Assembly: GCA_035221665.1 (NCBI GenBank)
Contig: CM069156.1
Coordinates: 28,396,001 to 28,460,000 of the forward strand
DNA: 64,000 nt
Direction: 5' to 3'
DNA from: Okamejei kenojei
Taxonomy: Eukaryota
The notes beneath the pieces were generated by a model. It ran no database searches, was not told the origin of the DNA, and saw only the letters and a program-made list of their open reading frames with translations. Both the position numbers and the translations under genes were made by a program. The stretch's first letter is position 1. Every line of letters begins with the position of its first letter. Below are positions 3,101-63,879 of the stretch, one piece after another.

Positions 3101-3225
3101 GCCGCTGCTTTGAAGTATGACGCGTATGCGCCTGGCGGGGCTTCTTCACGTAATCCCTCATCGTAACTCCTCATAAAATAAAGATCAAACTTCAAACAGG
3201 TAAGTTCTCGTTTAATCTTACTATT
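149..3225 (+). mobile_element. DIRS1-type tyrosine-recombinase retrotransposon, degenerate (RT/RNase H, adenine-methyltransferase-like domain, YR, ICR and right terminus)
   Basis: RT motifs LPNGLTSA..FTKLLK and YLEDIL; RNase H QTDVSALGWG, INYLELL and VDNTTAV; MT-like NIDLFASRLN..VDAFSLHW; YR AWRDSTKKQY and STRAAS..ILEAAGWS..TF.RFY. ICR 2890-2998 is inverted to the terminus 3147-3225. Many frameshifts. Confidence 0.92.
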
Positions 3226-6456: not shown

Positions 6457-6572
6457 TTCATTTTAAATTGGTTTAATCCAGGAATATCTGCTGGTAGGCC
6501 ACCTTGTTGTAAATGGATCCAAGATCTTTGAATATCTATTGTGTATAGATGGCTGGCATGAGAATAGAATAC
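6457..6572 (-). CDS. Exon of the unnamed TBC-like gene (VFYSHASHLYTIDIQRSWIHLQQGGLPADIPGLNQFKM)
   Basis: ttccctcag acceptor, gtaagg donor; 116 nt, phase 0 to 2, in frame with neighbouring exons. Confidence 0.88.
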
Positions 6573-8321: not shown

Positions 8322-8483
8322 TTGTTTCAGACTGTGATGATCATCAGACTCTATCAAAGGTTCCCTCAGTAACAAGAGGATTGTCAGGCAGAAATCTTCC
8401 ATCACCCGCGGCTTCCAGTCTTGCATAAAGAGTTGGTCCCAGATCAGCAACATGGCTGGCATGTCCAAGATGCCTACAAACCC
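8322..8483 (-). CDS. Exon of the unnamed TBC-like gene (GFVGILDMPAMLLIWDQLFMQDW...SLKQ)
   Basis: ccatag acceptor, gtaaga donor; 162 nt, phase 0 to 0; contains the TBC C-terminal L.IWD..F motif. Confidence 0.92.
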
Positions 8484-10213: not shown

Positions 10214-10357
10214 CTCTCCGATCCATTTCCTGAGGAGTATGATTGGGTTTTTCAGCAATTCTTTGCTTATGTGTTGCATATTTTCAGAGTTGTGCCCAAT
10301 ACTATGGAATTGCTGAACCTGTGTCTTTTCACACTCAACTTGCTCCAGTAGGAATTC
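10214..10357 (-). CDS. Exon of the unnamed TBC-like gene (EFLLEQVECEK...LLRKWIGE)
   Basis: ttctctaatcag acceptor, gtaagg donor; 144 nt, phase 0 to 0. Confidence 0.9.
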
Positions 10358-12104: not shown

Positions 12105-12283
12105 TTTGGGATCAATTAAGGCATTCTTGGTGAACGAAGAATGAAGGTGAGCAAAGAGTACTGGGTCTTCATTTCCTAAACGATTCATCACTTTTTCAGC
12201 CATTCCAAAAACTTCCGGCCAAATTGGGAATACATTGTCAATGAGCAGGTGCAGATACATTGCCAACTCATACGGATGTTCAG
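12105..12283 (-). CDS. Exon of the unnamed TBC-like gene (EHPYELAMYLHLLIDNVFPIW...EDPVLFAHL...IDPK)
   Basis: gccacag acceptor, gtaaga donor; 179 nt, phase 1 to 0; DPxLxxHL is a TBC hallmark. Confidence 0.92.
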
Positions 12284-18573: not shown

Positions 18574-18742
18574 GCTTGGATGATGCATTTTTAAAAGCAA
18601 TCTGAAGAGGAAAGAGCCAGTATATTAGGTGTGGTTGGTATGTTCCATCATAAACGTATAGGACATTGAGTGCTTTGCTGGCTTCTAAAATCATTTGCTC
18701 ATTTGTGGCAAAGGGCTGCATGCAGGGTGTCTTTTCAAATTT
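18574..18742 (-). CDS. Exon of the unnamed TBC-like gene (KFEKTPCMQPF...GTYQPHLIYWLFPLQIAFKNASSK)
   Basis: aaacag acceptor, gtgagt donor; 169 nt, phase 0 to 1. Confidence 0.92.
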
Positions 18743-19256: not shown

Positions 19257-19380
19257 CTCAACTACAGCATTTTCTACTAGTCCTGAAATAGGAGAACGTG
19301 TCGCACTTCTCAGTTTCAGTTCAGACACTCTGCGTTCAAGTACCCACCCAAACCTTTCCCTGGTAGTTTTTTCAACACTT
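19257..19380 (-). CDS. Exon of the unnamed TBC-like gene (SVEKTTRERFG...SPISGLVENAVVE)
   Basis: ttcttcacacag acceptor, gtgaga donor; 124 nt, phase 2 to 0. Confidence 0.92.
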
Positions 19381-19992: not shown

Positions 19993-20218
19993 TCTACTGA
20001 AGCTCTGGTCTGGTACTTTTCATTCATTTTCAGCAGCTTATCCAGCCAAATGAAGCTTCTTAGTGTCGATGGAAGCAACTTTCCTTTCAGTTGTTCACTA
20101 ACAGCAAGCATCTGTTCACGATCTGACCTGAGGACAGCACAGACAGAGGTTCCAAGTACCTCACTCTGCACACAGCTCAGCGCTGGAGGGTTCAACTTGG
20201 GACTCGGGTTGTTGCCAT
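19993..20218 (-). CDS. Exon of the unnamed TBC-like gene (GNNPSPK...GKLLPSTLRSFIWLDKLL...RASV)
   Basis: ttgcag acceptor, gtaaga donor; 226 nt, phase 1 to 2; LPSTLRSFIW matches the TBC N-terminal (I/L)PxxLRxxVW motif. Confidence 0.92.
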
Positions 20219-21730: not shown

Positions 21731-21875
21731 CATTCAAATTTAATTGAAATTCAGATCGTCTCCGCATTGTCAGGTGCAAATCTTTACTCTCCACTGATTT
21801 TGGGCGTCTTCCAACCAATTCTGCCCATGAGAACTGTCGTGTTGCTGAGTTGTGTGCCAAATCAGAGTCATAATC
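21731..21875 (-). CDS. Exon of the unnamed TBC-like gene (DYDSDLAHNSATRQFSW...QLNLN)
   Basis: ttattcccacag acceptor, gtaata donor; 145 nt, phase 0 to 1. Confidence 0.85.
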
Positions 21876-27521: not shown

Positions 27522-27634
27522 ATTTTGCTTTGCCTCGTGTCTTGCCAGTAGCTGTTCCATCTCCATGAAAACCAGTTTGTAGGTGTCATCAATGAAGTTA
27601 ATCATCTCAGATGATACGTCAGAATAATCACCAG
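27522..27634 (-). CDS. Exon of the unnamed TBC-like gene (GDYSDVSSEMINFIDDTYKLVFMEMEQLLARHEAKQN)
   Basis: aaccacag acceptor, gtaata donor; 113 nt, open only in phase 1, which matches the upstream exon end. Confidence 0.85.
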
Positions 27635-36085: not shown

Positions 36086-37037
36086 TAATTTTGTGCTGAA
36101 GTGTACTTAAAATAAAACATAAAAAGTTTTATTATTATTCTGCTGTTTTAATCATAACAGTAGTGAGAGACCAATTAATTTTTGTTTTCCATGGTTATTT
36201 TCATGGCAGGTGTTGTACTACACTGTATATATATATACACAGTCACACACACACACACAATATATATATATATATTTCTTTTTTACTGGTGCTGTGGTGG
36301 GTACTTCATGACCAGCCACCACTATCAGTGCATTTTTAGGGTCAGTTTTCCATTTTATTTTTACTGCCCTTATTACTCCTGAGTTTTTCCTCAATGAGAC
36401 TACCTTCAAATCTCTGAGGTAGATATTCCCACCATAATTCATCATATATATTAATATATGAAACCCGTTTAGGGTAGGTTAGGGAATGTTTTTGGGCCTT
36501 TTAACCCTTTTTGGCTTGAATTCTTTATTTACTTTATTTTTGGAATCTTTTTTTTTTTTTTTTTTCCATTATTTTTTCAAGCCATAACCTTTTTTAGTCT
36601 GAAGGCCTTTTATTGATTTTTTTTAAATTATGGCCTTTCTGACTTTATAAAATATCCCCCCCCCCCCCCCGTGCCAAAAGTTTGTGGAGCGACTAAAAAT
36701 CTTTCTAACGTAATTTTGACGGCCACCGGTATCGGAACCGGCTCCGTAATCTCCCGTTCCGATCGCTCCCCTTAGGACGTTCTTTTTTAAAACTCCGTTG
36801 TTTTTCAACTTATTTTTTACTTTTAAATTAGTTTTAAATTCTGGTATTCAGTACCAGCCACGGAGTTTTTTAGACCCTGACAGTGTTTTTCCCCCTGCAC
36901 TTACCTGCGGGCCCGTACCTACCACTGTCGAGGAGCTGCCTCTGCAGCTCTTGCTCTGCCGTCAGCGTCGACGTAATGCCGTTCCAGCGCCAGGCGGGGC
37001 TTCTTCACGTAGTCACTCACGTGACTCCGAAGTAAAA
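31487..37037 (-). mobile_element. End-to-end DIRS element with perfect ITR/ICR and a decayed non-coding interior
   Basis: ITR 31562-31597 versus 36976-37011; ICR 31717-31829 is complementary to both termini; AAAA at both junctions; residual similarity to the YR and MT regions of the DIRS at 149-3225. Confidence 0.9.
34572..35190 (-). mobile_element. CR1 LINE 3' fragment nested in the DIRS element
   Basis: IEYRSREVMLKLYKALVRPILEYGVQFW...FFTQRVVAVWNELP; (GTTATATG)n-like tail; TA-rich flanks. Confidence 0.9.
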
Positions 37038-37244
37038 TCTTATTTCATATGGATATGCAGAGAATGCAGGATATGGATAATGTGCAAGCGGATGAGATGG
37101 TTTTATCTTGGCATCATGTTTGGCATTACATTGTAGGACTAAGGGGCTGTTCTGTTCTATATTATATAAACAGAATCAACTCCAATAATGACTAAAATAC
37201 TATTGTAGGATACTTATGTATATTGTAGGATGCCAAAATCTTAC

Positions 37245-37359
37245 CTAGCCTCCTTTGGCAGCCACACTTTTCAGCTGTCTTCAGCACAATTTCATGTAAC
37301 CACACTCTTGTATCCTGAACTAAGCCCTCATGGTGATCAATGTCCATATTGGGTGACTG
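37245..37359 (-). CDS. Exon of the unnamed TBC-like gene (QSPNMDIDHHEGLVQDTRVWLHEIVLKTAEKCGCQRRL)
   Basis: Pyrimidine tract plus tag/cag tandem acceptor, gtaaga donor; 115 nt, phase 0 to 1. Confidence 0.85.
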
Positions 37360-38977
37360 CTATTCCAGGGAAGGATAAAGAGTACAAAAATTATTTGTTT
37401 GTGGTACAGAACAATGGGAAAGCAGATTTTTCCAAAGTTTCCTGAATAACTTTAACAATCTTAAAGACTTGTTTAATTTTGAGTTATAATGAAAATGGAG
37501 TTGTTACTTAGCCACATGTATTAACACTTGAATTAAATAAAAAAACTTCAGTGCATTATATTCCAAAACATAATTTTGAGGGAAAAAATATTATATATAG
37601 ATAATATCTGGTGATATCTGAAACTTTTTTTGTTAATTGCTCATAATATAGCTATCTATTAGTGCGAAGCATGGGTATTCAGCTACCAAACCTTTCACTT
37701 GATTGCCCCACCACCCTTTAAAAAAATGTAATGGCTCTTCATAGGTTTTCATTATTTTTAAAGACAGAAATACCATTCCATTATATGTTTTGCCAATTTC
37801 AGGACACTACAGAACATCACCCTGATTAGTAAGGTTTCTTGATTAGTAAGGATGTCAGGGGTAATGGGGTGAAGGCAAGAGAATTGGGTTGAGAAGGAAA
37901 GATCGATCAGCCATGATGGAAGGGCGTAATGGACTTGATGGGCCAATGGCATAATTCTGCTTCTAGAAGTTTTGAACTTATCACCCAACAAGTTAATCCA
38001 CACTATTTTATGAAGTGCTTAACTGAAATTGACAAAACTATAAACAGTTACAGTTTTACTGCTACCCAGCACTGTGTAAATAACAAACCCATCATGGCAT
38101 GGCATTTTACTAGAAATGAAGGTATCTTTAAGGCAGTGAATCTGCTGTAGTATAGTATCATTGATTTTGGCACAGTTATTAATTCAAATATAAATTTAAT
38201 TTGTGAGTATTGTACCATGAGCACCTAACAGCTAAGCCTGGTCCTGTCCTACTGAATATCTGGATGCATCTGTTTTCCAGCAGGTGTCACAGGATAAAGA
38301 AGAAAGCCTGGCTGATATTTTTCCTTGTGTTGACAGATGCCAAATCCAATCAGGGCTTCCAAACCACTGTCAGCTAATTCAGAGAGATTAGAAATAAAGT
38401 CTGCAACCTTGAATTTTTGCCATGCTGGCCAAATCCTAAACAACATAGCTGTCAAACTGGGTCAATGTCAATTGGTAAAGAAAACACGCCAATTGGTAAA
38501 GAAAAACATGGCAAATAATGAAAAAGCAAGAAAAATTGCAGATGCCCCAAATCTGAAATATAAAGAGAAATTAGTGGATATATTCAGTAGGTTAGGTACC
38601 ATTTTGTGGAAAGAGAAACAGTGTTAATGTCCTCTCAGCAGACAAGGTTATTGACCTGAAATATTAATATCCACAAACACAATCCATCCATCAATCAATT
38701 TATCAATCTATCTCATCATAAGAAATGTTTGATTCACTACTTCCAGTATTTCCCGTTTGCGCTACACACAAAATAAATTATTTCAACTTGTTTTCAGCCA
38801 GGGGAGTGGTAGAGTTTTAAAATTGGCAATTACTGTCATGGGCCAGAAGCCGAAGTCAACGGCAATCTCTTATAGTGACACATCTCTATCAGTTGATCTG
38901 AATGCCTTTTACGCCCGTTTTGAATAGGCAAACAAAGCTCTCCCTAAGTACATCCCCCGATCGCCCAATGGCTCTGT

Positions 38978-39878
38978 CCGATACATCTGGGTGGCAGTGT
39001 GAACTATGAGGAGGATGCTATGAGAATGCAGGGTGACTTGGACAGGTTGGGGGAGTAGGTAGATGCATGGCAGATGCAGTTTAATGTAGATAAATGTGAG
39101 GTTAACCACTTTGGTAGCAAAAACAGGAAGGCGGATTATTATCAAAATAATGTCAAGTTGGGAAAAGGGGAAGTACAACAGGATCTGGGAGTCCTTGTTC
39201 ATCAGTCAATGAAAGTAAGCATGCAGGTACAGCAGGGAGTGAAGAAAGTGAATGGCATGTTGGCCTTCATAACAAGAGGAGTTGAGTAGAAGCAAAGAGG
39301 TCCTTCTGCAGTTATACAGGCCCCGAGTGAGACCACACCTGGAGTATTGTGTGCAGTTTTGGTCCCCTAATTTGAGGAAGGACATTATTGCTATTGAGGG
39401 AGTGCAGCGCAGGTTTACAAGGTTAATTCCCGGGATGGCGGGACTATCATATGCTGAGAGAATGGAGCGGCTGGGCTTGTATACTCCGGAGTTTAGGATG
39501 AGAGGGGATCTTATTGAAACATATAACATTATTAAGGGTTTGGACACGCTAGAGGCAGGAAACATGTTCCCGATGTTGGGGGAGTCCAGAACCAGGAGCC
39601 ACAGTTTAAGAATAAGGGGTAAGCCATTTAGAATGGAGATGCGGAAACACGTTTTCACACAGAGTTGTGAGTCTGTGGAATTCTCTGTGGGCGGTGGAGG
39701 CCGGTCCTCTGGATACTTTCAAGAGAGCGCTAGTTAGGGCTCTTAAAGATAGCGGAGTCAGGAGATCTGGAGAGGTGGCAGGAACGGGGTATTGATTGGT
39801 GATGATCAGCCATGATCACATTGAAAGAGGTGCTGGCTCGAAGGGCCGAATGGCCTACTCCTGCACCTATTGTCTATC
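38978..39878 (+). mobile_element. CR1 LINE 3' part, inserted into a Rex1-like element
   Basis: MQFNVDKCEV.HFG...VRPHLEYCVQFWSP...RGDLIETY and the CR1 3' UTR. Confidence 0.9.
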
Positions 39879-41982: not shown

Positions 41983-42126
41983 CTGTATACCAGGCTGCTC
42001 CAGATGGCTGATGTGCTTTTGTACAAAAGGACGTCCCAAAAGCTGTAGAATTATCTGTCTTCGTTCAGAATTCTTCAATTGATCCTCAATTTCACAAACA
42101 AGGGCAGATTCTAATTTTTCATAAAC
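41983..42126 (-). CDS. Second coding exon of the unnamed TBC-like gene (VYEKLESALVCEIEDQLK...EQPGIQ)
   Basis: ttttaaactcag acceptor, gtgagc donor; 144 nt, phase 0 to 0. Confidence 0.85.
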
Positions 42127-44464: not shown

Positions 44465-47400
44465 TTTGGCGAGTCGAGACAGTCGGGTCCAATAAAGTTC
44501 TTTATTTTTTAAACAAAAATAAAGTGATTACCCGAGTCGATATTGTCAGCCAAAATAAATGACGCTCACTCAAACCGCGTGGAGCTGGAATGAATGGTTT
44601 TACAGAAAAACCTGCGAAAACGCACCCCCGCTCACATGACCGCGCCAGCCAATAGCGAGGGTTCGACATTACCAGGGCCACCGCTAGGTGTCGCTACAGG
44701 ACACCCCCCCAGAACCCGAGGTACGGAACCGTGCGTGAGGTTGGACACGGCGACCGCAATGTGTGGTAACAACGGACGGGGCGGGAGATACAGGTGGGGC
44801 TGGCAGAACAGAGCCAGGACAGTACCAATATATGGTACATATTGGTACCAATGACATAGGTAAAAAAAGAGAAGAGATCCTGAAAGGAGAATTTAGGGAG
44901 TTAGGAAGAGAATTAAGGAAAAGAACTGCAAACATAACAATCTCAGGATTACTTCCTGTGCTACGCGACAGTGAGAGTGGGAATGGAGCAAGGTGGAGGA
45001 TAAATGCCTGGCTGAAGGACTGGTGCAGAGGGCAGGGATTCAAGTTTCTGGATCAATGGAACCTCTTTTGGGGAAGGAGTGACCTGTATAAAAAGGACGG
45101 GTTGCACTTGATCCCGAGGGGGACCAGTATCCTGGCAGGGAAATTTGCAAAGGCTACCGGGGGGACTTTAAACTAGAACGGTTGGAACGAGGGACTCAAA
45201 TAGAGAAATCCAGTAGACAGGGTCTGAGGCAGGAGGCAGAGAAGGGAAGCACTCAGACCCAAAATATAGGGGGGAAAGAAAAAAATAAATAAACAGAGAA
45301 TAAGACGTGGTGGGTTTCCAGGGCAAAAATCAAAAGGGACCACTTGTCAGCATAATTGTATAAGGAGGAAGAGTGTTGTAAAAACAAGCCTGAAGGTTTT
45401 GTGTCTCAATGCAAGGAGCATTCGTAATAAGGTGAACAAGTTGAATGTGCAGATAGTTATTAATGACTATGCTATAGTTGGGATCACGGAGACATGGCTC
45501 CAGGGGGACCAAGGCTGGGAGCTGTAGAAAGAAAGGAAATGGAGGTGGGGTAGCGTTGCTGGTGAGAGAGGAGATTAATGCAATAGAAAGGAAGGACATT
45601 AGCTTGGAGGATGTGGAATCAATATGGGTAGAACTGCAAAATTTTAAGGGGCAGAAAACGCTAGTGGGTGTTGTGTACAGGCCACCTAACAGTAGTAGCG
45701 GAGTTGGGGATGGCATCAAACAGGAAATTGGAAATGCGTGCAACAAGGGTAAAACAGTTATAATGGGTGACTTCAATCTACATATAGATTGGGTGAATCA
45801 AATAGGCAGGGGTGCTGAGGAAGAGGATTTCTTGGAATGTATGCGGGATAGTTTTCTATACCAACATGTAGAGGAACCAACGAGAGAGCAGGCTATTCTA
45901 GACTGGGTATTAAGTAATGAGGAAGGGTTAGTTAGCAGTCTTGTTGTGCGGGGCCTCTTGGGCAAGAGTGACCATAATATGGTTGAGTTCTTCATTAGGA
46001 TGGAGAGTGACATAATTAAGTCAGAAACAAGGGTTCTGAACTTAAACAAAGGTAACTTTGAAGGTATGAGAAGTGAATTGGCCAAGATAGACTGGCAAGT
46101 GATTCTTAAAGGGTTGACAGTGGATGTGCAATGGAAGGTATTTAAAGACTGCATGGATGAACTACAACAATTGTTCATCCCAGGTTTTGCAAAATAATAA
46201 ATCTGGGCAGGTAGTGCATCCATGGATAACAAGGGAAATCAGGGATAGTATAAAAACAAAAGATGAAGCATAGAAATTAGCCAGAAAAAGCAGCTTACCA
46301 GAGGACTGGGAGAAATTCAGAGTTCAGCAGAGGAAGTCAAAGGACTTAATTAGGAAAGGGAAAATAGATTATGAAAGAAAACTGTCAGGGAACATAAAAA
46401 CTGACTGCAAAAGTTTTTATAGATATGTGTAGAGAAAGAGATTAGTTAAAACAAATGTAGGTCCCTTGCAGTCAGAAACAGGCGAATTGATCATGGGGAA
46501 CAAGGACATGGCAGACCAATTGAATAACTACTTTGGTTCTGTCTTCACTAAGGAAGACATAAATAATCTGCCGGAAATAGCAGGGGACCGGGGGTCAAAT
46601 AAGGTGGAGGAACTGAATGAAATCCAGGTTAGCCGAGAAGTGGTGTTGGGTAAATTGAATGGATTAAAGGCCGATAAATCCCCAGGGCCAGATAGTCTGC
46701 TTCCCAGAGTACTCAAGGAAGTAGCCACAGAAATAGTGGATGCATTAGTGATAATTTTTCAAAACTCCTTAGATTCTGGAGTAGTTCCTGAGGATTGGAG
46801 GGTAGCTAATGTAACCTCACTTTTTAAGAAAGGAGGGCGAGAGAAAATGGGAAATTACAGACCAGTTAGTCTAACATCGGTAGTGGGGAAACTGCTGGAG
46901 TCAGTTATTAAAGATGGGATAGCATGGAGAACCAGTGGATGTGTTATATCGACAAGGTCCCACATAAGAGATTAGTATACAAACTTAAAGCACACGGTAT
47001 TGGGGGTTCAGTATTGATGTGGATAGAGAACTGGCTGGCAGACAGGAAGCAAAGGGTAGGAGTAAACGGGTCCTTTTCAGAATGGCAGGCAGTGACTAGT
47101 AGGGTACCGCAAGGCTCAGTGCTGGGGCCCCAGCTATTTACAATATATATTAATGATTTGGACGAGGGAATTGAATGCAACATCTCCAAGTTTGCGGATG
47201 ACACTAAGCTGGGGGGTAGTGTTAGGTGTGAGGAGGATGCTAGGAGGCTGCAAGGTAACTTGGATAGGATGGGTGAGTGGGCAAATGCATGGCAGATGCA
47301 GTATAATGTGGATAAATGTGAGGTTATCCACTTTGGTGGCAAAAACAGGAGGGTAGACTATTATCTTAATGGTGGCAAATTAGCAAAAGGGGAGATGCAA

Positions 47401-50041
47401 CGAGACCTGGGTGTCATGGTACACCAATCATTGAAAGTAGGCATGCAGGTGCAGCAGGCAGTGAAGAAAGCAAATGGTATGTTAGCATTCATAGCGAAAG
47501 GATTTGAGTATAGGAGCAGGGAGGTTCTACTGCAGTTGTACAGGATCTTGGTGAGACCACACCCGGAGTATTGCGTATAGTTTTGGTTCCAAATCTGAGA
47601 AAAGACATTCTTGCCATAGAAGGGGTACAGAGAAGGTTCACCAGACTGATTCCTGGGATGTCAGGACTTTCATATGAGGAAAAACTGGATAGACTTGGCT
47701 TGTACTCGCTAGAATTTAGAAGACTGAGGGGGGATCTTATAGAAACTTACAAAATTCTTAAGGGGTTGGATAGGCTAGATGCGGGAAGATTGTTCCCGAT
47801 GTTGGGGAGATCCAGAACAAGTGGTCACAGTCTAAGGATAAGGGGTAATTCCTTTAGGACCGAGATGAGGGAAACATTTTTCACGCAGAGAGTGGTGAGT
47901 CTCTGGAATTATTTGCCACAGAAGGTAGTTGAGGCCAGTTCATTGGCTATATTTAAGAGGGAGTTAGATTTGGCCCTTGTGGCTAAAGGGATCAGGGGGT
48001 ATGGAGAGAAGGCAGGTACAGGATACTGAGTTGGATGATCAGCCATGATCATATTGAATGGCGGTGCAGGCTCGAAGGGCCGAATGGCCTACTCCTGCAC
48101 CTATTTTCTATGTTTCTATGTTTCTATGTAATGGTGCAGGAGGAACAGAAACAACAGGTGAGAGGGGAACAGGCACAACAGGTGCGACCGGACCGGTCAG
48201 TGGAGGTTGCGCCGCCACCTCCGGGCTGTCGACATTCAGGTGGGCCGGCTTAAGTCGAGCGACGGAGACGATCTCCTCTCTGCCCCCGTCGTCCAAAAGG
48301 AAAGTCGCGATGCCGGGTCGCAACACCCGGAACGGACCCTCGTAGATTCACTGCCGTGGGGACCGCTGCGAATCCCTGCGGATAAACACCAATAGGCAGT
48401 TCTTAAGGTCCGGCGCCACATGCACTGGGGCAGTCCCATGCCGTGAGGTAGGAACAGGGGCCAGGCCGCCCACTCTCTCCCGGAGACTCGCCAAAACCGC
48501 TGAGGTAGACTCCGGCTGCCCTCGAACCGCAGGGAGGAAATGCCCGGGCACCCGCAAAGTCGAGCCATATACCAACTCGGCGGACGATCCATCCAAGTCC
48601 GCTTTAGGGATGTGTAGATGCCTAACAGCACCCAAGGCAACTGGTCGACCCAGACTGGACCTGTGAGCCATGCCTTCAGAGTCGATTAGAGTCGATTTCA
48701 GGTGGCGGTGGAATCGTTCCACTAACCCGTTGGCCTGGGGGTGATAGGCGGTGGTGTGGTGCAACTGCGCCCCATATAATTTTGCCAACGAAGCCCACAA
48801 TGTGGACGTAAACTGAATCCCCCGGTCGGTGGAAACATCTGCCCGAACCCCGAATCTAGCAATCCAATGGGCTGTCACTGATCCATGACTGTGAGGAGAT
48901 GCGTGGCACCGCAGGACGGCGGTAACGGACCCACTAAATCCACATGGATGTATTGGAAACAGCACGATGCAACCACAAAGTTTTGCACTGGGGCTCGTAC
49001 ATGACGCTGAACCTTGGGTGTCTGGCAGGGGATGCAGGTTCTAGCCCAAGCCGCGACCTGCTTGCGGTGGCCCTGCCAGACAAATTTGTCCACCACCAGC
49101 GCGGAAGTCGCCCGAATTGAAGGGTGAGCCAGGCCATGGATGGCGTTGAAAATCCAGCGGCGCCAACCCGCAGGAACAATGGGGCGTGGGCGCCCGGTGG
49201 AAACATCGCACAGTACCAACGCTCCTGTGGAGCCAAACAGAAAGTCGGCCAACCGCAACCCTGAAGCGGCCGTCCTGTAGCCATCCATCCTGTCGTCTGA
49301 GCAGCAAACTCCACGTAAGCCACACCATGGTCCACGGACGCCACAGCCGGTAGGGCCGGGCGGGACAGGGTGTCGGCGACCGTGTTGAATTTCCCGGCCA
49401 CATGCTGTACGTCTGTCGTGAACTCTGACTCGAATGCCAGGTGTTGTAGTCAGTAAAAGCCGTGAACGGCCTGCCCTCCAGGAAGTATCTAAAGTGACGG
49501 ATGGCCAGGTACAGTGCGAGGAGCTCCTGGTCGAACGCGCTCGGGGGGTCCTCAGCTCACGGCTGAAAAAGGCTAGCGGCAGCCAGTGGCCGTCAATGAA
49601 CTGCTCCAACACCCCACTCAAGGCCTTATCGGAGGTGTCTGCCGCGTGAGCAGTCAAGGCTGAGGTCTGCAGGTGTACCAGCATGGTGGCTTTGGCCAGC
49701 ACCTCTTTCGCGCCGTCGAACACGGCCTCAGCGTCCGTGGACCACACAAGGTCCCGTGGCTTACCAGCGGGGCACTGAAACAGGGGGCACATGATCCTGG
49801 CGGCCGCTGGCACGAAACGATGATAGAAGTTAACCATGCCGACAAACTCCTGCAGCCCATTTAGTGAGCGGCCTGGGGAACTGCCGGATGGTCACCTTAG
49901 ATGGTCACCTGCGAGGTAACATGGTGCCCCAGGAATGAAATTGTGCTGGCATTTGGCGGGATTGACTACGAGTCCATGGTCCTCGAGCCGCTGGAACATC
50001 GCCCGCAGGTGCGTGAGGCGTTCCTGTTAGCAGCGGCTACA
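44465..50041 (-). mobile_element. Truncated Gypsy LTR retrotransposon (part of RT, RNase H, integrase, PPT, 3' LTR), split by a CR1
   Basis: GMVNFYHRF, PLAFFSR, H-H-C-C zinc finger (HGLAHP..CIPCQ), HVDLVGPLP, TDRG.QF and TTAYHPQANGLVERFHR; G-rich PPT at 44699-44710; LTR 44465-44698 starts TGTAGCG; CATG on both flanks. Confidence 0.9.
44830..48128 (+). mobile_element. Near-full-length CR1 LINE (ORF1 SGNH-esterase end, ORF2 endonuclease-RT, 3' microsatellite), inactivated
   Basis: HIGTNDIG..DGLHL esterase; GVVYRPP, GDFN and SDHN endonuclease; KSPGPD, GNYRPVSLTS, VPQGSVLGP and KFADDTK RT; (TTTCTATG)3 tail; frameshifts and internal deletions near 45525 and 46925. Confidence 0.95.
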
Positions 50042-50695
50042 CATGTTTATAAGATCTCCCATGATCAATGGGCATATTGGCCAGACTGCGTGCTTCCTTC
50101 AAGAGTTACAGTGGAAATTAAAGTGTTGCCCAACTCCTTAGACAACATGCCTTGGAAGTGATGCAGAGGGTTTTGTTGAGGCTTGTCCCGGACAGCTGAA
50201 CAAAATAGGACACTGGGCTGTTCCCATGGATTGCACACTGAGACATATATCAACTGTTGCTGGAAAACCAGTGCAATGTGTCTCCTGGCCTGCCTGAAAT
50301 TCACTGATGCAAAGGTATAATCCACAGATGAATGCTATAAATAGACACATTCAAATATCCACAACTGAGTGCTAAGTGTCATGCTGAAGCTCAATGCAGC
50401 CAGTGCATGGGCTCTATGGGAAAGAACTACAGTTCATTGCACATTAATTAGCTGAGTGTTTTAAAATCCTGTGAACTATTTGCTTTAAGGTTGAATAGAA
50501 ACAATAACTATGATGTGCTAATTTTAAGCAATGGAAATAACAACCTGTTATGAAAATATTGAATTGAGTGTTATATATTACATTTCCATTTTTCATGATA
50601 AAGTACATTTTGAAATTAAAGAAATACTTTTCCAGTGATGGTATTTATATCGCTGAATACAATTTAAAAAAAAGACAATCCAGTCATATACTGAC

Positions 50696-50818
50696 CTTGT
50701 GCCATGGTTTGCCTGGGAATAATGTCTCCTGCAGGCTTGAGTCCAGCCAATCCATCTTGAATGGATGGTTATTCATGTCGGATCCCAGATGATATCCAGT
50801 GCTTTTTGAGATACTCAT
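50696..50818 (-). CDS. First coding exon of the unnamed TBC-like gene (MSISKSTGYHLGSDMNNHPFKMDWLDSSLQETLFPGKPWHK); exon extends as UTR to 50851
   Basis: attgcag acceptor at 50852-50854, in-frame TGA TGA just upstream of the ATG, gtcagt donor; phase 0 joins VYEKLE. Confidence 0.75.
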
Positions 50819-52869
50819 CTGTCATCAATAACCTCTGAGCTTTGGATTTAACTGCAATATCAACACTGATAAGTTAGCTTAAGATTTAAGAAATGTTCTA
50901 TGCTGGGCCTCTGCATTATTAAAAAATAGGAAAAAGGGTGATTATGATAAATAATGTTAAATAATTAGGTAAAAGTTATTTTTATATCCATTGTAACAAC
51001 TGGTTATAATATTATTTATTACAGTGAGACCTTTATCACGCTCTTTGACTACCGAACTATCATAGCCAACCCAGAATATTTTTCCTTCCGGTACTTGTAC
51101 ATGATCATGTTATGCATTTATTAATTCTTCCATTGGAACCATGGAATAGTTCAGCTTTGCTCAATCACCTTTAGTGCCTGAAAACATTCCAAGATACTTT
51201 TACCAAAGCACTATGAGACAAAATTTGATCTTGATCCATGCAAGATGATATTATGACCAGCATGAGGTACATTTTAAGATGTCTTTTAAGGGATGGGAGA
51301 GTTGGAGACAGGCATAGAAATTTAGGAAATGTATTCGATTGTTTGTGTCAGGACTGCTGAGCACTAATAATAGAATGTGAAAATGTATAAAATGCAAGAA
51401 TTGGAAGAAGGGTTCAGAGATTATGCACTCAAGGGACGTTTTGAAAATAAAGACGAGAATTGTAAAACAAACCATAAGCATCATAGGTTACATTCTTAGA
51501 CTGAGTTACCTTGGGAACTACATACCGGGTAACTATAAATTTTAACACCGTTTGGCTGCTGATATGAAAACAAAAAGATCTTAAATCAAAACCTTTGCAA
51601 CAACTTCAGTGACAGATTTTTTTCCCGCCTTTCCTTCTTTCTAATGTTGTATCTTTAGAAAAGAGGAGGATCTCAGATTTAGTCTCTTTGTGCTGAATTA
51701 ATTGAGCTCAGAGGGGATATCAGAATAGAGAGACTACAAATTGCGCAATGAAAGGAAATAAAAATTGTATTTGCAATATCTGCTGAAATATATTCCAATA
51801 GAATGGATTTACCTGGATATATCAATTCAATCATCATGCACACTTGCCAGTGGAATCAAAGGCAAGCATGGAACTGAAGCCTTTGTTTGGATAGGGGAGG
51901 AGAGAGAGGATTGGGGAGAGGTGGAGAGAATAAGTAAAAGTAAAAGGATATTTTAGAAAAATAGTTGGGAGCTTTCCAATGGAACAACTTGCTTTCTTAT
52001 TCTGAATAATAGGGTAAAATATATTTTTATTAAGAGATATTTTAATAGAATACAATCTCTTAATATTTTACTCTATTAACTCTTAATAGTTAAAAAGAGT
52101 TACACATTAAGAGACAAATATTGCTGCAAATAGAATTGGATTTTGCATCATATAAGTGGTCAATAACAAAGTAAAATTATCCAATGTGCTTCTCAAAAAA
52201 CTTTAATTAAACACAATTTAATGACATGTCACATAAAATGATTGAAAGCTGGTATGGACAGAATGGGCTAATTAGGCTAAATGGCCTTCCGTGCATTAAT
52301 CATTCCACAATTCAATAAAATGGGGTGGAAGATTGCAACCTTCACGTTTCATCTAATGCAATCAATTCGATGTGCACAAACGGAAGATCAAATAGAACAA
52401 GTTGTCCTACAACTTTAGGCTGTGCACGCCACACAAAATGATCATATTGAATGGCGGTGCAGGCTCGAAGGGCCGAATCGCCTACTCCTGCGCCTATTTT
52501 CTATGTTTCTATGAAAGAAGAAGATTCAATAAAATGAGCAATGCAGAGTCAAAATGATAGATTTGCTAAATAAGGTAGAAGAGGCGAAGAGTCTTTAGCA
52601 TTGGAATTTCGTTGATTAGTTAGTTGTAGGTATGACAGCCAAATAATGGAAATCGAGGAAGTAGTAACAATCAGAACTGAAGAGCACTGAGATTTTGGAG
52701 AGCTGAAAGACATTGCAGACATAGGGAGAATTGGAAAAGCGAGGGTAGAACTAATTAAACACAAAAAAAAACAAGGATTAAAATGGCATGTTATGACATT
52801 TTGCAATGTATAATTTTTCATCCGAAATTTCTGAAACCGCAACATTCACTCAGCAAGGCATTATTTGTC

Positions 52870-53190
52870 AACTGTGGTTCAGTCTTGCCTCTGAGTAAGA
52901 AGGTTGTGGGATCAATTCCAACAGCACAGAACTGACCACAAAAATATAGTGCTGCTCTCCAGTGTAGGTTTGAGGGATAGCTAATTTTGGAGATGTTTGA
53001 TTTCAGACACAATGTCAAAATACTTTCTTGGGTATCTACAAAAGATCCCAATGGTGACCCGGGGTCAATGTTGTTCCCATAATTATCAGATTATCTATTA
53101 AATATATATAACAGTTTGTGGGTTCTTCTCCTCAGGCACACAATTGCTGCTGCATTGCCCATACACTAACCACAATCATACTTCAAAACA
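52870..53190 (+). mobile_element. Old tRNA-head Deu-domain SINE-like element
   Basis: cttgcctctgagt.agaaggttgtggg.tcaa.tcca head, then aaagatccca.tgg and gtttgtggg..ctt..cacaaattgctgctgcatt core. Confidence 0.55.
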
Positions 53191-53206
53191 AAACCTTACT
53201 GCTTGT

Positions 53207-53416
53207 AAGTAGATAAAAATGCCGGAGAAACTCAGTGGGTGAGGCAGCATCGATGGAGCGAAGGAACAAGTGACGTTTCGGGTCGAGTCTGAAGAAGGGT
53301 CTCGACCCGAAACGTCACCTACTCCTTCGCTCCATAGATGCTACTTCACCCGCTGAGTTTCTCCAGCATTTTCATCTACCTTCGATTTTTTCCAGCATCT
53401 GCAGTTCCTTTTTAAA
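53207..53416 (+). mobile_element. Palindromic Penelope-derived mini-element with a hammerhead-like core and a 12-bp TSD
   Basis: Inverted arms at about 53209-53286 and 53302-53379; core CTGAAGA-GGGTC/GACCC-GAAA-CGTC at 53289-53316; cttactgcttgt at 53195-53206 and 53417-53428. Confidence 0.85.
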
Positions 53417-53487
53417 CTTACTGCTTGTTAAGAATGTTGCGACATCCTGACGAAGTTACCAGGTCCATAAATAAGTACAACTTTCTT

Positions 53488-53845
53488 AGAAACATAGAAA
53501 ATAGGTGCAGGAGGGGACCATTCGGCCCTTCGAGCCAGCACCGCCATTCATTGTGATCATGGCTGATCGTCCCATTTCAATAACCCGTGGCTGCCTTCCC
53601 CCCATATCCCTTGATACCACTAGCCCCTAGAGCTCTATCTAACTCTCTCTTAAATCCATCCAGTGATTTGGCCTCCACTGCCCTGTGTGGCAGGGAATTC
53701 CATAAATTCACAACTCTCAGGGAGAATTTTTTTTTCTCACCTCAGTCTTAAATGACCTCCCATTTATTCTAAGACTGTTGCTCCTGGTTCTGGACTCGCC
53801 CAACATTGGGAAGAGAACCAGGGGCCACATCTTAGAATAAAGGGA
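53488..53845 (-). mobile_element. CR1 LINE 3' end with a short 5' inversion
   Basis: CR1 tail at 53488; 53813-53841 is inverted relative to 53763-53791. Confidence 0.85.
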
Positions 53846-53988
53846 AAGTCTTGTTAGATTGTAGAAGTGGGTTTTGTACCGTTAAACCTATGGACTGACA
53901 TTTTAACAATATAGCAAAAAAAAACCCACAGGAAAATTGACATTGCAAGACATATTAACAAAGGGTGTTAATTTAATAACAAAACCTC

Positions 53989-54202
53989 GGGTAGACAAAA
54001 GCAAAGATACTAGAGTATCCTCTAGTATCTTTGGACAAAAGTGCTGGAGAAACTCTGCGGGTGCAGCAGCATCTATGGAGCGCAGGAAATTGGGACGAAA
54101 CGTTGCCTATTTCCTTCGCTCCATAGATGCTGCTGCACCCGCTGAGTTTCTCCAGCACTTTTGTCTACCTTCGATTTTCCAGCATCTGCAGTTCCTTCTT
54201 AA
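53989..54202 (+). mobile_element. Palindromic Penelope-derived mini-element with a 10-bp TSD
   Basis: acaaaacctc at 53979-53988 and 54203-54212; inverted arms at about 54034-54090 and 54109-54165. Confidence 0.8.
54002..54033. mobile_element. 32-bp hAT-like micro-MITE (14-bp TIRs, 4-bp spacer, 8-bp TSD)
   Basis: CAAAGATACTAGAG-TATC-CTCTAGTATCTTTG flanked by GACAAAAG at 53994-54001 and 54034-54041. Confidence 0.8.
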
Positions 54203-54242
54203 ACAAAACCTCTGGGTCTGGTGCCAAAAGTGCAGCGTTTAC

Positions 54243-54555
54243 CTGTTCACTGCTCCCGTTGCTATAGCAACCAACGATACCAGAGGAGCGGGGCGACGTT
54301 GAGCGTCATTGCGTCGGGATGCAATAAAAAATACTTTTCTTTTCATGTATTAAATATAGAGAGAGCACTGTTATTCACCCAAAAACGAACCCTAACTGTA
54401 GACTGCGACTCGTTGTGTTTTTTTAAAGGTGTACATACACATTTCTTAAAGCTTTAGCTGTAACCTATGACCTGCTGTGAGGCGGTTTGTGACCGCGGCC
54501 GAGGAAATGGCTGCTGGGGGTTGAGGGAGGCGGCGGGCGCCGGGCTCTCGCCAGC
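54243..54555. promoter_or_regulatory. CpG-rich bidirectional promoter and 5' UTR region shared by RNFT1 (+) and the TBC-like gene (-)
   Basis: The only non-repeat CpG cluster noticed in the window; minus-strand donor CAG|gtaaac at 54242 and the RNFT1 ATG at 54556 are about 310 bp apart. Confidence 0.75.
54258..54271. promoter_or_regulatory. RFX-binding X-box (perfect palindrome GTTGCTATAGCAAC)
   Basis: Fits the X-box consensus GTNRCY-AT-RGYAAC and lies at the 5' end of the minus-strand gene. Confidence 0.75.
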
Positions 54556-54581
54556 ATGAAACTCCGGCCACAGAATGACAG
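54556..54581 (+). CDS. RNFT1: RNFT1 coding exon 1 (MKLRPQND)
   Basis: gccagcATG in CpG-rich sequence, AG|gtaatt donor; phase 2 matches exon 2. Confidence 0.8.
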
Positions 54582-56023
54582 GTAATTAACGCAATACCTT
54601 GGCAGTGACGGCAGGAAGAAGCAGTCGACCGTCGTTTTAGGTTTGTTTGTGTTGTGGAAATCAACCTTTTTTTTTGTCTTGATGTGAGTATATGATGTGT
54701 TCGCCTTTAAAATGTACGTTGTCTGCAGGCCCTGGAAGAGGCTGTTCCGCTGGAGTCAAATGTCCCCACTTTCTAGAACAAACTCAAAGAGTCCTCATTC
54801 CCAGCTGTCGCCCCAATACCACGTTATGCTCCATCAAATTCTTAAGCAAGCACCCTTTAGAACTAAAGATAGACAACTAAAGATTTTATTTTAAAGTTGG
54901 AGTAATTCAGCGGGTCAGGCAACATCGCTGCAGAAAAGGAATAGGTGACGTTTCGGGTCGAGACCGTAATCTTCTTCAGAACTACTTCCGTTTTCTACAG
55001 CCCTTGCAGGACGAGTTCCCGATCATAACCTGCTTGGTTCCGATCATAAAGCTCATGGGTTTTTTTTATTTCTGTAAATGGAAGTGCCTCTATTGATCCT
55101 CTTTAAATTTGTAATGATCGAATCTTATCTCTTGTCAGAGGGAACGGGCGACGTTTCGTGTCAAGACCCCTCCTCAGATGAAGTCACTTACTCCTTATCT
55201 CCAGAGAAGGTGCCTGTCCTGCTGAGTTACCCCAGCATTTTGTCTATCTTCGGCGTAAACCAGCATCTGTAGTTCCTTCCTCCACTTATCTCTTGCCATC
55301 TGTCTTTGCCCCCTTTACTCCATTTTAACATTGTACTTGAAGTTTATCCTATCCAGGCATGCTATCTCAACAAATAATACCACACAAGTATATCAGGTAG
55401 TATAAAAGAAAAAAATCATGCCAAAAATAAAATTATTACAGCTGCCAAGAGGTAGATTGGAAGATTTGGATATTTGTATCAAATCTCATATGTGAGTCGG
55501 AGATCAATCAAGTGTCTGATAACAATGGGAATATAGTTACTATGGAATCTGGTGGTATATGCTTTCAAGCTATTGAATCTTCTGCCTCATGGGAGAGGAC
55601 AGATGAGAGGATAAACCATAGTATGAATGGTGCTTGATTATATTGGGTCTTTTAAGTATGGAGTTCATGCGGGGAGGCTAATTTTCGTGTGGACTCGGCT
55701 GCGTTCACATCACTGCATTGTCTTGCATTTCAGGCAGAGCAGTTGCCATACCAAGCTGTGATGCATCTGGGTAGGATGCTTTCTATACTGCCATATGTAG
55801 AAATTGGTGAGAGTCATTGGACACGTGCTGAATGTTCTTAGACATCAAAGGAAGTAGAGACATTGATGTGCTTTCTTGGCTGTCGTGTCTATGTGCTGAG
55901 GACCCTGCCTTGTTTCTTAACAGTTGCAGAGGAACTTGCTCAAAGAGAAATAATTTTTATTGATGTCATCTACAAGGTTCTGCATAGGATGAGCTTCTTG
56001 TTAATGGTTGAATCAAGAGTAAA

Positions 56024-57266
56024 GATTAGATTAGATTAAATTCCTTTATTGTCATTCAGACCTTTCGGTCTGAACAAAATTTTGTTACCTTGCAGTCATA
56101 ACATATAATAAATTAAAACAAAACACACAATAAACACATATTTAACATCCACCACAGTGAGTTCACCAGGCACCTCCTCACTGTGGTGGAAGGCAAAAAT
56201 CTTAAAGTCTTTGTCTTCTTCCCTACCTGTTCTCCCTCTGCGCTGAGGCGATCCAGGCCTCCGATGTTATCGTCCACTAGGCCCACGGCCGAGCCTCCGA
56301 AGCCGGGCTGCCACCACCGCCGTCGCCGGAATGCTGGAACACCGCCACAACTCTGAATCAGGGTCCACCGCTGGAACGCTGGAGCTCTGAAGCCGGGCCG
56401 CCGCTGGAGCGCCGGAGCTCTGAAGCCGTGCCACCGCTGGAGCACCGCTGGAACGCCGCTGGAGCAACTGCTGGAGCACCGGAGCTCTGAAGCCGTGCCA
56501 CCGCTGGAGCGCCGGAGCTCTGAAGCCGGAGCGCCGCTGGAGCAACTGCTGGAGCACCAGAGCTCTGAAGCCGGGCCGCCGTTGGAGCATCGCTGGAACG
56601 CCGCTGGAGCACTGGAGCTCTGAAGCAGGGCCGCCGCTGGAGCACCAGAGCTCTGAAGCCGGGCCGCCGTTGGAGCACCGCTGGAATGCCGCTGGAACAC
56701 TGGAGCTCTGAAGCCGAGCCACCGCTGGAGCACCGCTGGAACGCCGCTGGAGCACCAGAGCTCTGAAGCCGGGCCGCCGTTGGAGCACCGCTGGAACGCC
56801 GCTGGAACACTGGAGCTCTGAAGCCGGGCCACCGCTGGAGCACCGCTGGAGCAACTGCTGGAGCAACTGCTGGAGCTCTGAAGCCCTGAAGACGGGCCGC
56901 CGCTGGAGCAACTGCTGGAGCACCGGAGCTCTGAAGCCGGGCCGCCGTTGGAGCGCCGCTGGAGCACCGGAGCTCTGAAGCCGTCCGCTGCCGCCGCTGG
57001 AACACTGGAGCTCTGAACGCTCGCCACAGCTCCGAGGCCGCCTGCTCCACCATTAGGCCTCAGCACAGACTGAGACGGTGACGGGGGACACGACAAGAAA
57101 AGGTTGCATGCCCCCGAAGGGAGAGACTAAAACCTTGTTCCTCCCACCCACAAACACAAACTAATTATCCAAAATTCTAACTAAAACAGACACAAAAAGA
57201 CAAAAAAACGAAAAAAAAACAGACGGACTGCAGGTGAGCGGCAGCTGCCACGCAGCGCCGCCACTT
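56024..57266 (-). mobile_element. Non-autonomous LINE-derived (Rex1/L2-like) element with an expanded internal tandem repeat
   Basis: Minus strand starts AAGTGGCGGCGCTG, ends gacaataaaggaa with a (TCTAA)n tail; no RT coding. Confidence 0.55.
56365..57020. repeat. GC-rich higher-order minisatellite (ccgctggagca and ggagctctgaagccg subunits)
   Basis: About a dozen gagctctgaa cores separated by variable numbers of about 11-bp gctgga units. Confidence 0.92.
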
Positions 57267-58650: not shown

Positions 58651-59138
58651 GAGACATTCGAGCCAGAATTCTGGAATACCACACAGGCCAGGGATTCTGA
58701 ACAGCCGGTTGGTAGGGCCTGACATGCAGAACGAATTTGTTGCTGTGCACACTGGTATCAGCCAACACCACGTGCAGCCACTAACTGAAACCACAGGGGA
58801 AGGTGCAGCTTCGCATCCTGACTTATTTGTTGGGACTTCAGAGAGTGTGTCACATCCTTCCAAAGACGTTGTTCAAATTCAAATGGATGCATCTGAAGAC
58901 CAGAACAGGCGACTTGGAGCAGGACCCCAGCATACAAACGCTTCTCATTCGCACTTGCACTCTCACTTGCATTCTCATGCCAGAACGGAGGGTTCTGCAG
59001 GAGAAAGGTCTGAACTGGATGACAGGGAACCCAACTCGGGCTCAATCTCGGAACTTCGGTACCTCTTCCTTTGGCTTCAGAAGAGTCTCCCATTTATTGT
59101 CATCATTTGTGCCAAACTGATTTTTCAACATGCACTAG
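58651..59138 (+). CDS. RNFT1: RNFT1 coding exon 2 (His-rich linker and first TM segment)
   Basis: HSHLHSHLHSHAR...SELRYLFLWLQKSLPFIVIICAKLIFQH matches RNFT1; ttgatag acceptor, gtatga donor; 488 nt, phase 2 to 1. Confidence 0.93.
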
Positions 59139-60380: not shown

Positions 60381-61004
60381 TCTAATGCAGTGTTGGTCGT
60401 CCAAGTCTGCAGAAGCAGAATTGCTGGATCATTGCACCAGGGGCCATTGACCTACCTTTTTGATATACTGATCTGCAAGGCTGCTGTATAATTCTGGTAT
60501 CTGAGACGAGGTCTGCTTTTTTTTAAAAAGGGCAAATAGTGTGAATTCGGCTGACTTTAGATAGTGGTTTTGGTCATGGCTGAATCTATTTCTGGTAACT
60601 AATTTATTCAAACTTGCAACATTCAATAGTTCAGATTTCCAGAAACATACCGTACCACACATCAGATTGACATGCCATCCCCCATATTAAACATCTATTC
60701 TCTCCATGCAATGTGAATCATTTACAAAAGCAACTTGGCAGGGCTTCTTTGATGGCACCTCTCAAATATTCAACCTGCTCCAGGAGAAGAGCAGAAGGCG
60801 CACGAAAAAATATCACAACCTACAAATTTTCCACAAAAGTCACACACCATCCTAATACATCTGTGCCTTCACTTAAAGACCAGTCAATAAAATGGCTCAC
60901 TGTCATGCATTAGATGCAGGCAATCTCTCCATCAACACATCTCTAGCATGGATTTTATAATTCCAATCAAATTTGCAAGTTTCTCTTTAAAGTTTCTACA
61001 AAAG

Positions 61005-61752
61005 GTGAATGGTGTCATATTAGGAAAAGGGGAGGTGCAATGAGACCTAGGTGTCCTTGTACATCAGTCACTGAAATTAAGCATGCAGGTAAAGCAGGCA
61101 GTGAAGAAAGCTAATGGCACGTTGGCCTTCATACGGAGAGGATTTAAGAGGAGCAAGGAAGTCCTACCGCAGTTGTACAGAGCCCTGCTGAGACCGCACC
61201 TGCAGTTGAGTGTGCGGTTTTGGTCGCATAATTTGAGGAAATACATTGCTATTGAGGGAGTGCAGCGTAGGTTCACCAGGTTAATTCCAGGGATGGAGGG
61301 ACTCACATATGATGGAAGAATGGAGCAACTGGGCTTGTATTCACTGGAATTTAGAAGGATGAGTGGGGATCTTGTAGAAACATATAAAATCCTTGAGGGA
61401 TTGGACCGGCTAGATGCAGATTTTTTTTCCCTATGTTAGGGGTGTCCAGAACTAGGGGTCACAGTTTAAGAATAAGGGGTAGGCCATTTAGGACTGAGAT
61501 GAGGATAAACCTTTTCAGCCAGAGAGTTATGAATCTGTGGAATTCTCTGCCACAGAAGGCAGTGGAGGCCAATTCACTGGATGTATTCGGGAGAGAGTTA
61601 GATATAGCTCTTAGGGATAATTGAATCAAGGGATATGGGGAGAAAGCAGGAACAATTACTGATTTTGGATGATCAACCATGATCATATTGAATGGTGATG
61701 CTGGCTCAAAGGGCCAAATGGCCTACTCCTGTACCTATTTTCTATGTTTCTA
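61005..61752 (+). mobile_element. CR1 LINE 3' part
   Basis: QAVKKANGTLAFI...IEGVQRRFTRLIPG...NLWNSLPQ and a tttctatgtttcta tail. Confidence 0.9.
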
Positions 61753-62098: not shown

Positions 62099-62175
62099 GT
62101 ATTGCAGTTGGTGCTGGATTGTGGATAACTTCCCTTTATGCAAACAAGATAATTATAAATCAGGTCTTCCTACAG
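62099..62175 (+). CDS. RNFT1: RNFT1 coding exon 3 (GIAVGAGLWITSLYANKIIINQVFLQ)
   Basis: tttaatag acceptor, gtaggt donor; 77 nt, phase 1 to 0; YANK.I.NQVFL motif. Confidence 0.93.
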
Positions 62176-63778: not shown

Positions 63779-63879
63779 GAGCGCCGCTCTGTATTAGAGT
63801 GTGGCTGGTTGCTTGGGTTTCTAACTGCCTCCACCTTTCTCCTCTATGATACTTTCCAGTCTCAGTCACTCTTCTACAG
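63779..63879 (+). CDS. RNFT1: RNFT1 coding exon 4 (ERRSVLECGWLLGFLTASTFLLYDTFQSQSLFY); gene continues beyond the window
   Basis: ttattttag acceptor, gtatgt donor; 101 nt, phase 0 to 2; C.WLL.FL..S..LLY.TF.SQSL motif. Confidence 0.93.

Follow-up and report, generated by a model that had tools for sequence, protein, structure and literature searches.

Two divergent genes and their shared promoter

The window (the whole 64-kb stretch of skate DNA that was analysed) carries two genes placed head to head. The minus-strand gene, hereafter the TBC-C2 gene, is intact, with 12 GT-AG coding exons that encode 586 aa and contain no internal stop. When the window was searched by tblastn with three orthologues of ~1350 aa, only their residues 1–587 were matched; the orthologous protein is more than twice the window-encoded part. 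C2 exons were not found in the window by this search, and presumably they lie beyond its base 1. The Amblyraja annotation (P0001) begins ~138 aa late, and window positions 50851–27634 contain those N-terminal exons intact and in frame.

On the plus strand, a gene that opens at ATG 54556 has four phase-consistent exons encoding 230 aa. We take it to be RNFT1-like, as recognised from its translation; a Pfam scan of exon 2 gave no match, and the C-terminal RING, if this is RNFT1, would fall outside the window. A short upstream ATG at 54507 (plus strand) opens a 5-codon uORF ahead of this gene, and its intron 1 contains a GC-rich compound tandem repeat of 11- and 33-bp-related units (56351–57017). 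The features of the two genes and of the region between them are:

50696..50851, minus strand: first coding exon, ATG 50818 (aligns to residue 1 of P0002 and P0004)
41983..42126, minus strand: coding exon, N-terminal helical region (splice model and tblastn)
37245..37359, minus strand: coding exon, N-terminal helical region (splice model and tblastn)
27522..27634, minus strand: coding exon (100% to Amblyraja over 28 aa)
21731..21875, minus strand: coding exon, low-confidence linker (splice model, tblastn, structure model)
19993..20218, minus strand: coding exon, start of the TBC fold with the conserved LRxxxW (splice model, tblastn, predicted fold)
19257..19380, minus strand: coding exon, TBC fold, leading into the expected arginine-finger region (splice model, alignment)
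18574..18742, minus strand: coding exon, TBC fold, expected arginine- and glutamine-finger positions (splice model, alignment)
12105..12283, minus strand: coding exon, TBC fold (97% to Amblyraja radiata LOC116989141)
10214..10357, minus strand: coding exon, TBC fold (splice model and tblastn)
8322..8483, minus strand: coding exon, TBC C-lobe (weak PF00566 match in orthologues)
6457..6572, minus strand: last coding exon in the window, end of the TBC fold (splice model and tblastn)
54002..54206, no strand assigned: dispersed short repeat (SINE-like) just inside intron 1, without the X-box (blastn to other copies in the window)
54230..54640, no strand assigned: CpG-rich head-to-head promoter patch (GC 0.50, CpG o/e 1.07)
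54237..54245, minus strand: candidate splice donor (score 5.2, rank 10/188)
54243..54320, minus strand: candidate non-coding exon 1 of the TBC-C2 gene, enclosing the X-box (from the donor, the CpG patch and the need for an upstream exon)
54258..54271, no strand assigned: candidate palindromic RFX X-box (only strict match in the window)
54466..54474, minus strand: alternative candidate donor at 54472 (score 7.3, rank 4/188)
54556..54581, plus strand: RNFT1-like first coding exon, name presumptive (reading frame)
58651..59138, plus strand: RNFT1-like exon 2 (phase-consistent; without a Pfam match)
62099..62175, plus strand: RNFT1-like exon 3, hydrophobic (phase-consistent frame)
63779..63879, plus strand: RNFT1-like exon 4, hydrophobic (phase-consistent frame); the gene presumably runs past the window end

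ATG 50818 sits 33 nt inside its exon, with an acceptor and in-frame stops upstream. Because this codon is Met1 of two shark/ray orthologues and lies that far inside the exon, a non-coding first exon is required upstream. A minus-strand CAG/GTAAAC is present at 54245–54237, and 15 nt (54257–54243) separate the X-box from its splice point, exactly as the sequence-only reading had placed it. Scored with a matrix built from the window's 16 modelled donors (leave-one-out range 2.0–9.9), this donor (54243) ranks 10th of 188 minus-strand GT sites in 50900–54560; it is a plausible candidate for the exon-1 donor. Use of the alternative donor would place the X-box ~200 bp into intron 1. With either donor, the X-box would stay a few hundred bases from both putative gene starts, within −500/+500, the interval around the TSS in which the functional X-boxes of validated human RFX targets cluster, both upstream and downstream (PMC5838959). 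The candidate exon 1 also holds a 15-codon uORF that ends inside the exon.

The CpG-rich patch contains 27 CpG, and repeats elsewhere in the window reach similar ratios. The CpG-rich surroundings described in the sequence-only reading are thus real, but the enrichment is modest at a GC of 0.50 and is matched by repeats. That reading had also put the X-box at the 5' end of a TBC-like gene. An upstream exon is indeed required there, but the start of the plus-strand gene, whose ATG is 285 bp from the X-box, had been overlooked: the promoter is common to two genes, and exon 1 and the TSS of the TBC-C2 gene are putative.

Mobile elements were seen elsewhere in the window. A decayed LTR retroelement with RNase H and integrase pieces (~48100–50050, minus strand, intronic) lies in the same intron as a LINE with esterase, endonuclease and reverse transcriptase pieces (~44700–48030, plus strand; both by Pfam), and shorter LINE copies occur near 34800–35300, 39000–39750 and 61000–61750. 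A 24-bp perfect palindrome (30422–30445) is found inside a probable mobile element. Related high-CpG elements with inverted internal repeats (~2900–3215, 31510–31830 and 36960–37045) recur near retroelement-like frames at 400–2700.

The X-box and its expectation by chance

The palindrome GTTGCTATAGCAAC is 14 bp long and is present in a single copy in the 64-kb window, even when two mismatches are allowed. It fits the palindromic RFX consensus and is the sole match to the strict pattern GTYRCYATRGYAAC. Among 200 dinucleotide shuffles of the window the strict pattern turned up in 3, and among 5000 shuffles of 54000–55000 in none; the test was post hoc, the motif having been picked after it was seen. 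For a looser, spacer-tolerant pattern the corresponding counts were 115/200 and 132/5000, and it is expected about once per window. A second, weaker X-box-like match, with a spacer one base shorter, is located at 37503–37515 (minus strand) in an intron, ~145 bp upstream of a coding exon, and is of the kind expected by chance.

Perfect palindromes of at least 14 bp number 14 in the window outside a pure TA run, the X-box included, and palindromy by itself was discarded as evidence. Since long palindromes are this common, the weight of the X-box lies in its consensus fit and its position. Its being part of a repeat was ruled out, as blastn of 53900–54700 against the window matched repeats only within 54002–54206. 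Its being part of an RNA gene was likewise ruled out: the 14 Rfam matches in 50500–56000 are all below the gathering score, and none lies over the motif.

These counts bear on whether the match could be a functionless coincidence, in which case the gene would be a TBC/C2 scaffold of the ordinary endomembrane kind. In favour of this, the selection was made post hoc among many possible motifs, in a window where 14-bp palindromes are common and the looser pattern turns up by itself. Against it, just one CpG patch in the 64 kb contains gene starts, and the sole strict match is located there; the protein, moreover, gives a separate pointer to cilia (see below). We consider such a coincidence quite improbable. 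The 14-bp palindromic X-box named in the sequence-only reading is confirmed; it is single in the window and rare by chance, and the site is a strong candidate X-box. Like the RFX X-boxes of ciliary promoters, it is a 14-bp inverted repeat that fits the consensus and lies near gene starts; it differs in being placed between two divergent genes and in being known from sequence alone. An X-box is an ordinary, known element, and it is the gene flagged by it that carries the value.

A TBC fold joined to three C2 domains

Two AlphaFold models of orthologues cover the protein (mean pLDDT 75.5 for the first, from a caecilian, and 80.1 for the second; pTM 0.44 and 0.62). Residues 232–579 of the first model align structurally with the full length of solved TBC domains: TBC1D22A with Z 21.4 (rmsd 3.5, 277 aligned), Gyp1 with Z 21.3 (rmsd 4.1, 288 aligned), USP6NL with Z 20.9, and the Chlamydomonas flagellar RabGAP (4P17) with Z 20.2 (rmsd 3.6, 266 aligned). 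The "TBC-like" label of the sequence-only reading is thereby upheld by a full TBC fold in the predicted structure. The near-tied Z scores mean that the fold does not pick out a TBC subfamily, and the flagellar RabGAP scores level with or below non-ciliary TBCs.

PF00566 gave 14.5–21.8 bits in 8 of 12 named relatives and no match in the other 4, against a cut-off of 25.2; that value was reached by 1 of 39 distant matches, and precomputed PF00566 hits were found on 12 of the 58 matches to the full-length shark protein. Searches of PDB sequences with alignments A1 and A2 and with protein P0177 returned no matches, a search with P0125 nothing relevant, and a search with alignment A4 only C-lobe TBC matches (TBC1D4, E 6e-4).

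The LRxxxW motif is conserved, with R in 109 of 110 rows. The glutamine finger YxQG is present in 0 of 114 aligned rows over the finger region; proline fills the expected column in 118 of 140. An IxxDxxR-like string, as expected of the arginine finger, was seen in just 2 of 114 rows, and the expected arginine column is variable (K27/N24/R19/S18/T10 of 117). In these counts the finger positions were placed by motif spacing in the sequence alignment, not by residue-level structural superposition. The domain is probably a pseudo-GAP and not an active RabGAP. Compared with the TBC/RabGAP family (PF00566), it keeps the whole fold (Z 18–21 to most solved TBC domains) and LRxxxW, but identity is 10–14%, Pfam scores are below 25.2 bits in the named members scanned, the finger motifs are absent and three C2 domains are fused to it.

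After the TBC fold come three beta-sandwiches. The first two match C2 domains with Z 9–12, the best match of the first being the C2 of AIDA (Z 11.2); the third, beta-rich and with high pLDDT, is called C2 without a fold match of its own. C2 domains of PI3K, ferlin and Munc13 match about equally well. Since non-ciliary proteins match both parts as well as ciliary ones do, the C2 and TBC folds do not single out cilia. The top Foldseek match, 9nw3_3A, a two-C2 chain in a ciliary-tip central pair structure, was set aside, as it superposes with an rmsd of ~20 and a Z of 9.2–9.8, like other tandem C2 proteins.

Language-model features were compared for residues 840–1245 (the second and third C2), with the caution that the look-alike scores (Atlas) are uncalibrated for protein parts and cluster names are automatic: an unnamed cluster scored 0.97, "nephrocystin-4-like" 0.95 (188 shared features), another unnamed cluster 0.94, NPHP4_C2_2nd 0.92 (178), Aida_C2 0.92 (167) and, as a lead, CCDC17_C 0.86. 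Transition-zone proteins are typified by divergent C2 domains (PMC3495828), and tandem divergent C2 domains are common to our family and to the NPHP4/RPGRIP1L/AIDA type (look-alike scores 0.92–0.95). That likeness comes from language-model features and not from alignment, no Ig-like repeats were seen in the skate-gene family, and Pfam scans of named relatives and distant matches reported no NPHP4 family. NPHP4 membership is not demonstrable, and the protein probably works like ciliary C2 scaffolds. In the accessible part of PMC3495828, fusion of TBC to transition-zone C2 domains is not mentioned (0 occurrences of TBC).

The C2 module is shared with a sister family. Nine distant matches, picked by eye for being without TBC (alignment A5), are homologous to the TBC family over part of C2a, C2b, C2c and the tail (probability 100, E 2.6e-61, 592 columns). 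Where the TBC family has its TBC domain, long A5 members have a coiled coil and an extra C2, whose profile scores 85–239 bits on 7 of 9 A5 rows and does not exceed 23.5 elsewhere. In a quick, unfinished tree built from 55 rows, the two families were split with an SH-aLRT of 98; 8 of the first 55 stored proteins were kept in it, and rows without both domains were left out. We take A5 to be long CCDC17; its long CCDC17-like members (P0177, P0192, P0199, P0164, P0175 and P0191; 1100–1570 aa) share the three-C2 module. The N-terminal half holds a coiled coil and an extra C2 in A5 but TBC in the skate-gene family, and by this comparison the skate protein is not CCDC17. Human CCDC17 is presumably much shorter than the long A5 proteins, and mammals may have lost the three-C2 module twice, with the TBC gene and in CCDC17.

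CCDC17 induction and Rfx dependence bear on the skate gene only if A5 is long CCDC17, as we assume. In Xenopus, Multicilin raises the two CCDC17 models 59- and 76-fold, and both belong to the core multiciliated-cell set (PMC5245798 supplement); in mouse, Ccdc17 expression falls in ependymal cells of Rfx2−/− and of Rfx3−/− animals (PMC7498320 supplement). CCDC17 is reported to mark ciliated cells (10.1101/672626) and has been called a ciliary tip protein (PMC12700831). Two apparent mentions were dropped: that in 10.1101/153437 is CCDC170, and the accessible text of PMC6163198 has no whole-word match. The C2 module thus supports a link to cilia independently of the X-box.

The full-length shark protein gave 58 matches, of which 56 are named, all from animals (coral to alligator): 9 chondrichthyans, 6 non-teleost ray-finned fishes, 7 elopomorph teleosts, 23 amphibians, 6 reptiles and 5 invertebrates (two molluscs, two sea-urchin models and one coral). 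No mammal, bird or clupeocephalan fish is among the 56, in a search that misses distant members: an amphioxus relative, P0012, was not returned and was found in a separate search. We infer losses in mammals, birds and clupeocephalans, most safely in mammals. Zebrafish is probably unsuitable as a test animal, because no clupeocephalan orthologue was found. The family shows 30–50% identity across animals and is annotated only as uncharacterised; the Xenopus laevis orthologue is LOC108708284.

A full-library search yielded 510 relatives at E 0.001 and 81 at 1e-30, all without names, and a profile search over 8000 candidates gave 2 proteins, likewise without names. Among 200 relatives, many of them fragments, 85 combine TBC with C2, 70 have TBC alone, 44 have C2 alone and 1 has neither part. 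We rejected the "ANK2" label given to amphioxus P0010: a Pfam scan revealed no ankyrin family, and the gene model is internally repeated. One distant TBC-family match, P0141 (1870 aa), also carries leucine-rich repeats and may be a fused gene model.

RFX control and a possible ciliary role

The placement of the gene in the RFX ciliogenesis or spermiogenesis regulon, as the sequence-only reading had it, gains from the strong X-box, the true TBC fold and a C2 module that points to cilia; it loses from the shared promoter and from the low weight of RFX binding. In Xenopus, 3025 of 3505 promoter sites co-bound by Foxj1 and Rfx2 are not at core multiciliated-cell genes (PMC5245798), so that binding alone is weak evidence.

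A shared promoter also means that the X-box might mainly serve the RNFT1-like gene, or be a general RFX1/5/7 site in a housekeeping promoter, the TBC-C2 gene not being specifically RFX-controlled. The plus-strand ATG is near, the densest CpG is at the 5' end of the plus-strand gene, and RFX1–3, 5 and 7 are broadly expressed (PMC5838959). Xenopus RNFT1 follows Multicilin with a trend of 1.25-, 1.44- and 2.07-fold, none significant after correction (2.07 at 9 h, padj 0.117; PMC5245798 supplement), which could mean that the X-box acts on the plus-strand gene too. However, the X-box lies within the candidate first exon of the TBC-C2 gene. Among the rows listed, Xenopus RNFT1 occurs once, in the all-gene sheet, and not in the core multiciliated list (PMC5245798), and of the mouse tables the one for distal peaks is alone in listing Rnft1, which is absent from those for differential expression and promoter peaks (PMC7498320). 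The neighbour thus looks less like an RFX target than the TBC-C2 gene does, and we regard control of the neighbour, or general RFX binding, as distinctly improbable.

In mouse (mm10), the Med13–Rnft1 interval holds one RFX1, RFX2 and RFX3 peak, ~12.7 kb upstream of Rnft1, off its promoter, and 114 kb from Med13 (PMC7498320 Table S8). This site is possibly a regulatory relic of the lost gene. In the Xenopus tables, no gene model stands among the rows listed between MED13 (ends 1,341,081) and RNFT1 (starts 1,479,790), a gap that we assume to hold the orthologue (PMC5245798).

Searches of the literature for the family itself were negative. Open-access full text contained no mention of LOC108708284 or of six other orthologue IDs and nothing that brings together an X-box, RFX and RNFT1; in this text and the supplements searched, no expression, ChIP, localisation or phenotype was found for any orthologue. 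LOC108708284 is absent from the accessible supplements of PMC12768278 and PMC12069884 and from the supplement rows listed in PMC5245798, which uses other IDs. It is also absent from the rows listed in the PMC10081853 supplement, as is rnft1, so that this absence is uninformative.

A precedent for a ciliary TBC protein with an RFX peak exists in TBC1D19. Orthology with the skate gene is not claimed; both are TBC proteins, and TBC1D19 presumably has no C2 module. The ciliary role and the RFX peak at the TSS are those of TBC1D19, a basal-body protein of the tubulin polyglutamylase complex needed for cilia (PMC13376646), with RFX1/RFX3 peaks at −3/+48 (PMC7498320 supplement).

We think it somewhat probable that RFX binds the X-box and drives the TBC-C2 gene in ciliogenic cells, and that the encoded protein is a scaffold anchored through its C2 domains at the base or membrane of the cilium, with a TBC domain that binds a partner and does not inactivate it. 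The motif, the gene model, the homology, the predicted folds and the absence by alignment of the finger motifs are the direct part of this explanation. We infer the rest: RFX binding, the gene driven, the TSS, expression, localisation and partner binding. On this reading the X-box would be functional and bind an RFX dimer; it would coincide with the start of the minus-strand gene or lie just inside it, within a promoter placed head to head with the RNFT1-like gene. Through it, RFX would switch the TBC-C2 gene on in cells that build a cilium or flagellum, namely multiciliated cells, spermatids and sensory cells. The predicted product of ~1350 aa would have an N-terminal helical region, a complete TBC fold in which catalytic fingers are not conserved, then three C2 domains and a tail of helices, and would act as a membrane-anchored scaffold. 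Its C2 module may bind phosphoinositide membrane or partner proteins, and its TBC fold may hold a Rab or other partner without stimulating GTP hydrolysis.

An RFX factor of the RFX2 type could also drive the gene in spermatids or secretory cells, where the protein would serve membranes outside the cilium, such as in the acrosome or in vesicle traffic. RFX2 is a major regulator of spermiogenesis (PMC4498915), most RFX-bound promoters are not those of core cilia genes (PMC5245798), and general trafficking proteins match the TBC and C2 folds equally well; yet among named look-alikes of the C2 tandem, those that come closest are of the NPHP4 type. The sister family, which we take to be a ciliated-cell gene, also speaks against such a role, and we hold it to be unlikely.

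Beyond the ciliary scaffold proposed above, the locus may represent an unnamed, ancient, RFX-driven ciliary family, in which a dead TBC is fused to the three-C2 module of long CCDC17 and which was kept from coral to crocodilians and lost separately in mammals, birds and clupeocephalans. We put this forward tentatively, as possible rather than probable. The component domains are known; the architecture of a pseudo-GAP TBC with three C2 domains is new in so far as no description of it was found in open-access full text. Human, mouse, zebrafish and a handful of protists supply most of the ciliary parts lists, and a component missing from these vertebrates would be overlooked. If the proposal is true, the losses would explain how the family escaped notice in human, mouse, chicken and zebrafish. 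Xenopus has an orthologue, and Rfx2/Foxj1 ChIP and Multicilin RNA-seq are already published for it. The TBC-C2 gene is a good candidate for an overlooked cilium or sperm-tail component, and would, if the proposal holds, be a membrane-tethering part that the main model vertebrates do without.
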